From a virus (taxonomy: Duplodnaviria; Heunggongvirae; Uroviricota; Caudoviricetes), in the IMG/VR virus record IMGVR_UViG_2711768040_000003: a stretch of DNA of 4,142 nucleotides. One strand, given 5' to 3'. The notes beneath the pieces are model-generated. The model had not been told where the DNA came from, did no database searches, and saw only the letters and a program-made list of their open reading frames with translations. This document shows positions 1 through 3,236 of this stretch, one piece after another. Each line of letters starts with the position of its first letter. Positions within the stretch are counted from its first letter, which is position 1. The translations under genes and the position numbers were made by a program.

Positions 1-292
1 CTGAGCTATGACTGCGCATTCGGGCCACCAGCAGAGGTGGCATTGCTTTTTCGATAGCTGGTAACAACGCCTGAATTTTTTTAACCGCATCAGGGGTGTC
101 TTTCTCCACCCAGCGGAAAATTTTCTGAGTATTGCGAGCCAGGGCTTCCGGATGGCTGTCGTCATACAGTTCCGGGAACGTCATTCCCAGCTCGAAATAC
201 GCTTTGGTAATTTTCGCAGCCGGTACTTTTTCGCCGTCCGGATGCGCCCAGGCATTCATCGCCATGCGGATGTGTTCATGCTTGATTTTCAT
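1..292 (-). CDS. ydaT: YdaT-like prophage protein (CII-position gene), N-terminal ~97 codons only; the C-terminus runs off the left edge
   Basis: Reverse-complement of 241-292 reads ATG AAA ATC AAG CAT GAA CAC = MKIKHEH..., which I recall as the YdaT N-terminus. No stop before position 1, so it is absent from the ORF track. It lies directly downstream of the YdaS-like gene on the same strand, as in Rac. Family assignment is from recall, not a search. Confidence 0.6.
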   Translation of the reverse strand, partial: MKIKHEHIRMAMNAWAHPDGEKVPAAKITKAYFELGMTFPELYDDSHPEALARNTQKIFRWVEKDTPDAVKKIQALLPAIEKAMPPLLVARMRSHSS

Positions 293-557
293 GAATCAAG
301 CTCCTAGAAAGTGGTTTTGTTAACGTTTTGGTATCTTCCAGCTCGGGCCAAATATTCATCCAATCAAAAGGCCTTAGTTGCTGACGTGTAACTTCACCAT
401 TACTGGCTCGCTCAATAAGGACACATAACGATGCCCCTAACACTTGACCTTTACTCAACGCCTTTCTTAGATAACCGATGCTGGTACCACACTCGCATGC
501 AAACATACGCTGTTCATCTGACGAAAGAGAATTGAGAAATATTCTTAATTCTTCCAT
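276..557 (-). CDS. ydaS: YdaS-like Cro/CI-type HTH regulator (Cro position of the switch)
   Basis: 93-aa ORF in the track. Motif ...GTSIGYLRKAL...IERASNGEVTRQQLRPFDWMNIWPEL matches my recollection of the YdaS/Cro-like family pattern. Strong SD: reverse-complement of 558-570 is CTAAGGAGTAGCT immediately before the ATG (minus strand, 557-555). Divergent from the repressor gene. Confidence 0.7.
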   Translation of the reverse strand: MEELRIFLNSLSSDEQRMFACECGTSIGYLRKALSKGQVLGASLCVLIERASNGEVTRQQLRPFDWMNIWPELEDTKTLTKPLSRSLIHENQA

Positions 558-582: not shown

Positions 583-664
583 AGAATACCTACAGGTAAA
601 CAAAAGTCAATACCCACAGGTTGTTTACCTTGCAGTAATCGCATCTATTATTTACCTATGGACA
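583..664. promoter_or_regulatory. OR-like divergent operator/promoter region: three 12-bp sites TACCTACAGGTA (587-598), TACCCACAGGTT (611-622), TACCTATGGACA (653-664)
   Basis: Seen directly: repeated imperfect palindromes with consensus TACCyAyrGGTA, centres 24 bp apart for the first two. Candidate leftward promoter on the minus strand, TTGACT (complement of 605-610), 16-bp spacer, TATTCT (complement of 583-588), overlapping the sites. Candidate rightward -10 TATTAT (646-651) lies 6 nt before the repressor ATG. Confidence 0.55.
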
Positions 665-1077
665 AATATGAATTTAGACGACAGCAACTCATCAAAATTC
701 GTGATGAGAAATGCGATGGTAAAGCGGTTAACGTGGCCAGAAAGATCGGGCGCGAGCCTTCTTATGTATCAAGAATGTTGTACCCAGAGGGGAAAAAGGG
801 AAAAAAACGGATCGCTGATGATATGGTGGAGATTATCGAAGAGTCCTTTGGGTTACCCCGGGGATGGATGGATGGTATCGTTTCATCATCAACGAACACA
901 GCCTCCAGTTATGAAACAAGGGTTCTAACGCCACGACAACGTATTTTTTTAGATCTCTTAGACGAACTGCCAGAAAGTGAAGCGGATAACTTATTAAAAA
1001 CTCTTGAAGAGAAAAAACAGTATTACAATATGATCTACGAAGAAATCCGTAAAAAGAAAGCACAAAACGCATCATAG
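658..1077 (+). CDS. Prophage immunity repressor, XRE-family HTH, DicA/RacR-like
   Basis: 139-aa ORF. N-terminal HTH-like segment AVNVARKIGREPSYVSRML. C-terminal LTPRQRIFLDLLDELPESEADNLLKTLEEK resembles my recollection of the DicA C-terminus (...LELLELFNALPESEQDTQL...). Divergent from the Cro-like gene and flanked on both sides by the same operator motif. No SD upstream of the ATG. Confidence 0.75.
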   Translation: MDKYEFRRQQLIKIRDEKCDGKAVNVARKIGREPSYVSRMLYPEGKKGKKRIADDMVEIIEESFGLPRGWMDGIVSSSTNTASSYETRVLTPRQRIFLDLLDELPESEADNLLKTLEEKKQYYNMIYEEIRKKKAQNAS

Positions 1078-2806: not shown

Positions 2807-2864
2807 TTTCTGGTGACTTTTGGCGGTATCAGTTTTACTCCGTGACTGCTCTGCCGCCCTTTTT
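2807..2864 (+). ncRNA. dicF: DicF small regulatory RNA (cell-division inhibitor sRNA), including its 3' stem-loop and U-tract
   Basis: tttctggtgacttttggcggtatcagttttactccgtgactgctctgccgccc followed by ttttt matches my recollection of E. coli DicF (UUUCUGGUGACGUUUGGCGGUAUCAGUUUUACUCCGUGACUGCUCUGCCGCCC) with about one mismatch. It sits between ydfC and dicB as in Qin. Confidence 0.85.
2822..2864 (+). terminator. Intrinsic-terminator-like 3' end of DicF (GC-rich stem GGCGG...CCGCC followed by TTTTT)
   Basis: GGCGG (2822-2826) and CCGCC (2854-2858) flank an internally structured loop, followed by the T-run 2860-2864. DicF 3' ends are known to arise partly by termination. Confidence 0.5.
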
Positions 2865-2868
2865 AAAG

Positions 2869-3030
2869 TGAATTTTGTGATGCGGTGAATGCGGCTGAGC
2901 GCACGCGGAACAGTTAAAAAGGCCAGTTGACTTCCGTATTGGTTCTTATGGGTGGGTTCTCTGTATCCGGCGTTAATTGTTAACTGGTTAACGTCACCTG
3001 GAGGCACCAGGCACCGCATCACAAAATTCA
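2869..3030 (+). repeat. Perfect 19-bp inverted repeat (TGAATTTTGTGATGCGGTG at 2869-2887; CACCGCATCACAAAATTCA at 3012-3030) enclosing 124 bp between DicF and dicB
   Basis: Exact reverse-complement arms read from the sequence. In RNA this gives a 19-bp duplex starting 5 nt after the DicF U-tract and ending 17 nt before the dicB ATG. Confidence 0.7.
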
Positions 3031-3047
3031 TTGTTGAGGACGCGATA

Positions 3048-3236
3048 ATGGAAACGTTATTACCAAACGTTAATACGTCTGAAGGTTGCTTTGAAATTGG
3101 TGTCAAAATCAGTAACCCTGTATTTACTGAAGATGCCATTAACAAAAGAAAACACGAACGGGAGTTATTAAATAAAGTATGCATTGTTTCAATGCTGGCC
3201 CGTTTACGTCTGATGCAAAAAGGATACTGGCAATGA
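3048..3236 (+). CDS. dicB: DicB cell-division inhibitor, 62 aa
   Basis: METLLPNVNTSEGCFEIGVKISNPVFTEDAINKRKHERELLNKVCIVSMLARLRLMQKGYWQ is near-identical to my recollection of K-12 DicB. In frame with track ORF 2952..3236. Confidence 0.9.
   Translation: METLLPNVNTSEGCFEIGVKISNPVFTEDAINKRKHERELLNKVCIVSMLARLRLMQKGYWQ

Follow-up and report, generated by a model that had tools for sequence, protein, structure and literature searches.

A predicted leaderless promoter and its operators at the repressor gene of a Qin/DicB-type prophage of Escherichia coli

The locus raises the question of whether a lambdoid prophage repressor is translated from an mRNA beginning at its own AUG and, if so, which operator controls that promoter; a sequence-only reading of the region had proposed a leaderless gene with an operator lying over its start codon. 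The stretch analyzed (4142 nt, hereafter the window) comes from a Qin/DicB-type lambdoid prophage of E. coli, of which it forms the immunity and early-left region, with the gene order ydaT-like, ydaS/cro-like, repressor, ydfA, ydfB, ydfC, DicF RNA, and dicB. The 5' part of the ydaT-like gene, a CII analogue (3-292, minus strand; Pfam YdaT, E = 2e-9), is cut by the window end. The plus strand downstream of the repressor carries ydfA (DUF1391; 1343-1498), ORFs at the positions annotated by PGAP as ydfB and ydfC (1500-1628 and 1658-1876), the DicF sRNA (2808-2859; Rfam, 75.8 bits), dicB (3048-3236), and an exonuclease-like gene 3' of dicB. Among 5426 complete E. coli genomes, 822 carried the segment 270-1200 at no less than 95% identity, O157:H7 and CFT073 being two of them. 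Megablast against phages returned none with this immunity region; Tritos and other phages had the flanks in common but a different repressor and cro module. Between ydfC and dicF, two ORFs without a Pfam family were observed (1899-2219, plus, 106 aa; 2197-2472, minus, 91 aa) in a segment missing from K-12 Qin and phage Tritos, and in their place O157:H7 carries another hypothetical gene. A sub-threshold STnc100 match (36.3 bits vs. a gathering score of 47) was also displayed at 2857-3080, directly after DicF and reaching into dicB.

The repressor gene is a 420-nt ORF (658-1077, plus strand) coding for 139 aa, with A658 as the predicted 5' end of its mRNA. Codon 658-660 is the earliest possible in-frame start, no ATG, GTG, or TTG occurring between the in-frame TAA at 571-573 and position 658, and PGAP placed an identical start for the 139-aa ORF in other genomes under the product name 'hypothetical protein'. 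Among 23 aligned homologues with the N-terminus MDKYE, M1 was invariant and D2-K3-Y4-E5 nearly so, while the extensions placed upstream of M1 by gene callers bore no relation to one another; the start at 658 is therefore well supported. The start codon was ATG in all homologous loci read whose match reaches residue 1, the exceptions being L029 and L032, where the match stops short. Non-AUG starts at an mRNA 5' end work poorly in E. coli. The ATG at 668, which opens an 86-aa ORF in another frame, was rejected as the start since it is used solely by frameshifted alleles. These alleles (P0010-P0018, 135-136 aa) start at the out-of-frame ATG 668 (MNLDDSNSS...) and return to the repressor frame at ...KRIADD, near A-runs at about 794-809; they would be without the helix-turn-helix (HTH), which suggests decay of the repressor in some cryptic prophages.

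The divergent cro-like gene (276-557, minus strand) codes for a 93-aa protein of the YdaS family (Pfam YdaS, E = 9e-6; at 25.8 bits the match is under the 30-bit curated cut-off) that also matched PDB entries 8co2 and 8c7k ('antirepressor protein Cro') with E = 1e-10. It has a canonical Shine-Dalgarno (SD) sequence, AAGGAG (563-568, minus), 5 nt before its ATG at 557, and a PR-like promoter for its operon at 583-610 on the minus strand (-35 TTGACT at 610-605, 16-nt spacer, -10 TATTCT at 588-583; 9/12 matches) with a predicted start near 576. No Rfam match was obtained in the repressor/cro intergenic region.

The two observations on which the proposal of a leaderless transcript had been built were confirmed. 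The 20 nt upstream of ATG 658 (...gcatctattatttacct) contain no SD core, the best anti-SD duplex having a free energy of +1.9 kcal/mol, and a -10 hexamer TATTAT lies at 646-651 on the plus strand, ending 6 nt before A658. A consensus scan paired this hexamer with a -35 TTTACC at 624-629, which is also the left half-site of operator O3, across a 16-nt spacer (9/12 matches; the -35 alone 4/6). TTGTTT (621-626) was rejected as the -35, since its spacer would be 19 nt long and the conserved pairing is that of TTTACC at 16 nt. TTTAC of the -35 was invariant or nearly so in the family alignment (A3), TATTAT was invariant in 12 E. coli/Salmonella alleles, and in the minimum-free-energy fold of the predicted mRNA the first 26 nt are unpaired. 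The missing SD is by itself no proof of a missing leader; the position of the -10 strongly supports a transcript that would start at A658 and thus a leaderless mRNA. The gene accordingly shows the features of lambda cI-PRM-type leaderless genes: an AUG start, no SD, and a -10 ending about 6-7 nt upstream. Searches of the open literature returned no mapped transcription start for this repressor gene and no account of mEp043 regulation.

The palindrome TACCnnnnGGTA occurs in three copies in the 100-nt repressor/cro region (587, 611, and 626) and in two perfect copies downstream (1120 and 1145), and five of the seven matches with at most one mismatch in the window fall within these two regulatory regions. 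Operator cores were taken as 12 nt and numbered with A658 as +1, and 16-nt sites were scored with a weight matrix trained solely on the O1 and O3 sites of distant relatives, none of them from the E. coli/Salmonella clade. O1 (AATACCTACAGGTAAA; 585-600) has no mismatch, scores 18.3 bits, and overlaps the cro-side -10, its core spanning -71 to -60 with the center at -65.5. O2 (AATACCCACAGGTTGT; 609-624; one mismatch; core -47 to -36, center -41.5) adjoins both -35 elements; its right half is degenerate and it scores 0.36 bits as a symmetric site, so that its occupancy would need cooperativity. O3 (TTTACCTTGCAGTAAT; 624-639; 12.8 bits; core -32 to -21) overlaps the repressor -35. In an alignment of 25 loci, TACC and GTA of O1, CAATACC of O2, and TTAC and GGTA of O3 were invariant or nearly so, and the TTG of the cro-side -35 lies within the CAATACC block. 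Polymorphism among the 12 E. coli/Salmonella alleles (A4) was nearly all in the spacers and in the central 4 nt of the operators (for O1, e.g., TACA, TGCA, CGCA, CATA, and CACA), with the half-sites fixed, which argues for real operators under selection. The window itself has A634 in O3 where other E. coli alleles have G, giving a perfect GGTA, and O3 is thus predicted to be weakened in this strain. Taken together, TTTACC-N4-GGTAAA is likely the operator of this repressor family. Operator-like 16-mers were also observed in coding regions, namely ATTACCAAACGTTAAT at 3059-3074, 11 nt into dicB (7.0 bits), and AATACGCTTTGGTAAT at 196-211 in the ydaT-like gene (3.9 bits); both are probably due to chance.

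The two downstream copies form an OL-like region (1118-1160) with perfect operators 25 bp apart (cores 1120-1131 and 1145-1156; 16.4 and 12.8 bits) that are conserved in the close relatives L035-L037. A PL/dicBp-like promoter, bracketed by the two operators, was recognized by eye on the plus strand (-35 TTTACT at 1132-1137, 17-nt spacer, -10 TATCCT at 1155-1160); with 8/12 matches it is below the scan threshold and is regarded as a candidate. The OL operators (1115-1170) are mutual inverted repeats that would form an RNA hairpin of 16 bp (-22.9 kcal/mol, z = -6.2) followed by UCCUUCUUUU. The hairpin resembles an intrinsic terminator of the repressor transcript and may be a by-product of two palindromes; a conserved terminator was rejected, as the U-tract is not kept in L035 or L037. 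The locus therefore has the layout of a lambda-type switch, with divergent repressor and cro-like genes, palindromes over both promoters, and copies at OL.

The promoter geometry was compared across 28 loci, each of a different species and encoding the conserved N-terminal domain, two phages, and six closer relatives. Most loci shared one upstream design that reads, towards the repressor, O1 TTTACCnnnnGGTAAA, about 8 nt, O2 (g)TCAATACCnnnnGG, O3 TTTACCnnnnGGTAA, then 8-10 variable nt, a -10-like hexamer, 6-7 variable nt, and the ATG. The distance from the TACC of O2 to the ATG was 47-48 nt in 30 of the 32 loci bearing this anchor and 49 and 50 nt in the remaining two, over a taxonomic range that includes Enterobacterales, Aeromonas, Burkholderiales, and a Xanthobacteraceae genome. 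A -10-like hexamer, defined by at least 4/6 matches to TATAAT with A2 and T6, was separated from the ATG by 6-7 nt in 20 of 30 distinct upstream sequences compared to 2.9% of 4648 ATGs in the same loci (nominal binomial P of 6e-24, inflated by relatedness since the loci are not independent). The hexamers themselves vary (TATTAT, TAGAAT, TAAAAT, TATGAT, TAGACT, TAAGAT, and others), consistent with conservation of the position and character of the -10 and not of its sequence; about one-third of the distant loci have weak matches there, such as TTGAAT and TGAAAT. A 4-mer SD core was found in 3 of 32 distinct upstream sequences, each time misplaced inside or upstream of the -10. Five Klebsiella loci with S24-type repressors (L006, L009, L010, L012, and L013) have another operator layout, consisting of one perfect ATTACCTnnAGGTAAT and one more site, and retain TAGAAT or TAAAAT 7 nt before the ATG. 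In the heteroimmune phage Tritos, whose repressor has a like C-terminal tail, the repressor ATG is preceded by TATCAT at 7 nt and lacks an SD. A leaderless gene requires a fixed distance from promoter and operators to the ATG and a leadered gene needs none, and this spacing therefore favors the leaderless reading.

The repressor might instead be produced mainly from leadered transcripts that start upstream, at a YdaT-activated PRE-like promoter or others, and are translated through an AU-rich, SD-independent leader, the spacing of TATTAT being incidental. The stretch upstream of the repressor ATG is indeed AU-rich, and lambda cI is also made from PRE at establishment. CP-933P has a YdaT-activated PRE (PMC8630535), a ydaT-like gene being present in the window too, and racR has two additional upstream promoters, three in all, of which the leaderless one is strongest (PMC9638921). 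Against a mainly leadered origin, which we hold to be improbable, the operator-to-ATG distance and the positioned -10 have stayed constant despite sequence turnover, which is hard to explain unless the ATG is the transcript start, and the scan gave no second plus-strand promoter match upstream of the repressor gene within the window. Extra upstream promoters, PRE-like or as in racR, may nevertheless add leadered transcripts. It is far less probable still, and in our view highly unlikely, that the promoter match is a chance feature of a decaying cryptic prophage in which the repressor is no longer expressed under regulation. Promoter-like matches are not enriched in the window (5 found vs. 7.1 expected in shuffles), as a chance reading would have it, and frameshifted repressor alleles do occur in some genomes (P0010-P0018). 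The match rate is about 9e-4 per position and strand, so that a match ending 6-7 nt before a given ATG would arise by chance with a probability of about 2e-3. The regulatory region and the protein are moreover conserved across the 822 genomes, the invariance of the operator half-sites compared to their variable centers points to ongoing selection, and the viable phages mEp043 and CharmingMan share the design. We thus interpret the region, with good confidence, as the start of a lambda-cI-like repressor gene of a Qin/DicB-type prophage together with its maintenance promoter, the gene being predicted to be leaderless and under operator control.

The part of the proposal that fared less well concerns the operator over the start codon. 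The degenerate site exists as described, TACCTATGGACA at 653-664 having two mismatches to TACCnnnnGGTA; the window holds 28 matches to the palindrome at up to two mismatches compared to 12 expected, and the 12-mer alone is therefore unremarkable. Extended to 16 nt (TTTACCTATGGACAAA; 651-666, i.e., -7 to +9), the site scores 7.2 bits and ranks fifth of about 4100 positions, behind O1, the two OL sites, and O3. Its left half-site TTTACC is perfect, while the right half (GACA) is poor. Were it a functional OR3, bound repressor or Cro-like protein would block leaderless initiation. Such a role gains from the perfect extended half-site, from the rank obtained with a matrix built on unrelated loci (about 0.011 hits as good expected per 100 nt, the length of the intergenic region), and from the invariance of the stretch CTATTATTTACCT in 11 E. 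coli alleles; CP-933P likewise has four palindromes in its 97-bp region, and K-12 dicA has an operator-like repeat (TTAGCATTAGCTAA) ending 2 nt before its ATG. The right half GACA nevertheless misses the nearly invariant G and the invariant T of the family motif, and seven of the site's 12 core positions lie in coding sequence set by the conserved Met-Asp-Lys. Across the family there is no conservation in the six or seven nucleotides preceding the ATG, TACC being confined to the E. coli clade and replaced by TACT in Salmonella, and the dicB-internal match at 3059-3074 is non-regulatory and equally good. The site also lies 27 bp from O3, out of helical phase, and the -35 is already covered by the conserved O3.

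A role as OR3 equivalent is accordingly unlikely for the start-codon site, which is most likely a fortuitous or weak half-site of little effect; it is probably not the main autoregulatory operator, and a role as a weak, lineage-specific auxiliary site has a low probability. O3, at 624-639 over the -35, is the more likely OR3 analogue because it is conserved, unlike the start-codon site. Of the PRM/OR3-like arrangement that had been suggested, the leaderless PRM-like promoter is thus well supported, its geometry being kept in about 30 homologous loci, and the assignment of OR3 to the start-codon site is not supported. We attach a low probability to the related idea that the E. coli/Salmonella lineage gained a fourth operator spanning the start codon, in which codons 1-3 combine with a newly arisen TTTACC half-site. 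If true, this operator would block leaderless initiation at +1 under high repressor or Cro-like control and would represent a tier of autoregulation absent from the wider family.

Identification of the gene as a prophage repressor is supported by its divergence from a cro-like gene, the two flanking sets of palindromic operators, and a modelled HTH. In the AlphaFold (AF2) model (pLDDT 84), residues 1-72 form a confidently predicted helical domain with a DNA-binding HTH (helices 23-30 and 34-40), and the C-terminus is a long helical tail. Foldseek ranked Rep of Salmonella phage SPC32H, a repressor controlled by an antirepressor, first among the structural matches to the model and XRE-type HTH proteins next, while the repressor sequence had no significant match in Pfam or the PDB (the best PDB match, ADAR1 Z-alpha at E = 0.08, was taken as chance). 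By sequence comparison the protein is clearly a domain mosaic of an S24-repressor-like N-terminus and a DicA-type tail. Over residues 1-74 it shares 70-82% identity with the N-terminal parts of numerous S24-peptidase 'LexA family' prophage repressors of 221-242 aa, and the N-terminal domain is 76% identical to cI of phage mEp043. Similarity to DicA and to the Tritos 'CI repressor' is seen over the C-terminal approximately 50 residues (BLASTP to DicA, 33% identity over 46 residues), and the gene occupies the DicA-type position upstream of ydfABC-dicF-dicB. The match to NCBIfam DicA (NF007257), at 23.9 bits compared to a cut-off of 101, is confined to residues 86-136 and therefore does not extend over the full length of the model. 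Pfam gave no match to a peptidase S24 domain (PF00717) in the 139-aa repressor, whereas relatives with a like DNA-binding domain have PF00717. The DNA-binding domain MDKYE...GWMDGI (window 658-880; P0031-P0117) was observed to be widespread, fused either to an S24 peptidase or to a DicA-type tail, and it matched no Pfam model or PDB sequence.

The proposed mechanism combines these features. Judging from the geometry, sigma-70 RNA polymerase bound at the -35 (624-629) and -10 (646-651) would initiate at A658, so that the mRNA begins with AUG, and ribosomes would load straight onto this 5'-terminal AUG without an SD. Ribosome loading on a 5'-terminal AUG is known for lambda cI, the classic leaderless case, and has been demonstrated for paaR2. 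Repressor dimers are predicted, from the conservation and position of the sites, to bind TTTACC-N4-GGTAAA. Occupancy of O1 and O2 would silence the divergent cro-like promoter, and occupancy of the two perfect OL sites would turn off the promoter of the dicB operon. From its position at -47 to -36, which is that of lambda OR2 relative to PRM, O2 could also stimulate the repressor promoter, and O3 occupied over the -35 could exert the negative autoregulation typical of an OR3 role. Because the repressor is without an S24 domain, its induction probably needs an antirepressor, by analogy with the antirepressor induction described for the DicA and Gifsy repressors (bioRxiv 10.1101/2023.04.14.536235).

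If confirmed, the locus would extend the rule of leaderless maintenance repressors in prophages by another case and, with it, by an entire widespread family. The leaderless repressor is well supported but ordinary; specialists would expect the arrangement, and no concept is changed by it. The alignment yields a testable operator motif, TTTACC-N4-GGTAAA, and a promoter/operator map for a prophage that about 15% of the complete E. coli genomes carry and that controls the DicF/DicB cell-division inhibitors. It also delimits a domain without a Pfam model that occurs in mEp043 cI, in many S24-type repressors, and in the DicA-tailed form.

Precedents come from several prophages. Among the five leaderless mRNAs detected by dRNA-seq in E. 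coli K-12, three code for the prophage regulators DicA (Qin), RacR (Rac), and YmfK (e14) (PMC4681348). Primer extension showed that the strongest promoter of racR yields a leaderless transcript (PMC9638921), and for paaR2 of CP-933P, divergent from ydaS-ydaT across a 97-bp region, 5' RACE together with N-terminal sequencing and mass spectrometry demonstrated a leaderless mRNA (PMC8630535). The -10 hexamers of K-12 racR (GAATAT) and ymfK (TTTAAT) each end 6 nt before the ATG, the same spacing as in the window repressor. K-12 dicA was dropped as a control for this spacing, having no clear -10 at 6-7 nt, and racR and ymfK were used instead; a consensus promoter for dicA was likewise not seen by Yun et al.

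The window resembles the lambda cI/PRM system in its divergent repressor and cro genes, three operators over back-to-back promoters, and a second (OL) operator set. Lambda cI expressed from PRM has no SD and a -10 ending 6 nt before its ATG, and lambda OR1 and OR2 are centered at about -66 and -42 from PRM, a geometry reproduced by the O1 and O2 centers at about -65.5 and -41.5. In contrast to lambda, to whose cI the DNA-binding domain has no sequence relationship, the predicted operator is TTTACC-N4-GGTAAA, O3 lies 15 bp from O2 and over the -35 rather than over the spacer and -10, and OL has two sites and not three. The window repressor also differs in being without an S24 peptidase, so that RecA-mediated self-cleavage is not expected.

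The PaaR2/YdaS/YdaT system of CP-933P is similar in having a small non-cleavable repressor divergent from ydaS-ydaT, with an intergenic region of 97 bp compared to 100 in the window, a leaderless repressor mRNA (proven there and predicted here), and a second promoter (PL) under the same operators. PaaR2, in contrast, starts with MQKKE and has the published repeat consensus GTTTAGTAA, indicating that the CP-933P system is heteroimmune. CP-933P also has four equally spaced palindromes compared to three conserved operators and one weak site in the window, and the paaA2-parE2 toxin-antitoxin pair comes next after paaR2 where genes of the dicB operon follow the window repressor.

With DicA/DicC of K-12 Qin, the window shares the neighborhood of repressor, ydfA, ydfB, ydfC, dicF, and dicB and a homologous C-terminal region of approximately 50 residues; the K-12 dicA mRNA is leaderless by dRNA-seq, and DicA acts from an operator to activate its own promoter. 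Neither the N-terminal DNA-binding domain nor the operators are related to those of K-12 DicA (operators of the TTAGTCATAACTAA type), and the divergent gene is of the ydaS type and not dicC. Conversely, mEp043 cI and the S24-type 'LexA family' repressors of Enterobacterales share with the window the N-terminal domain (70-82% identity over 74 aa), the O1-O2-O3 layout, and the -10-to-ATG spacing, but these 221-242-aa proteins carry a C-terminal S24 peptidase where the window protein has a DicA-type tail.
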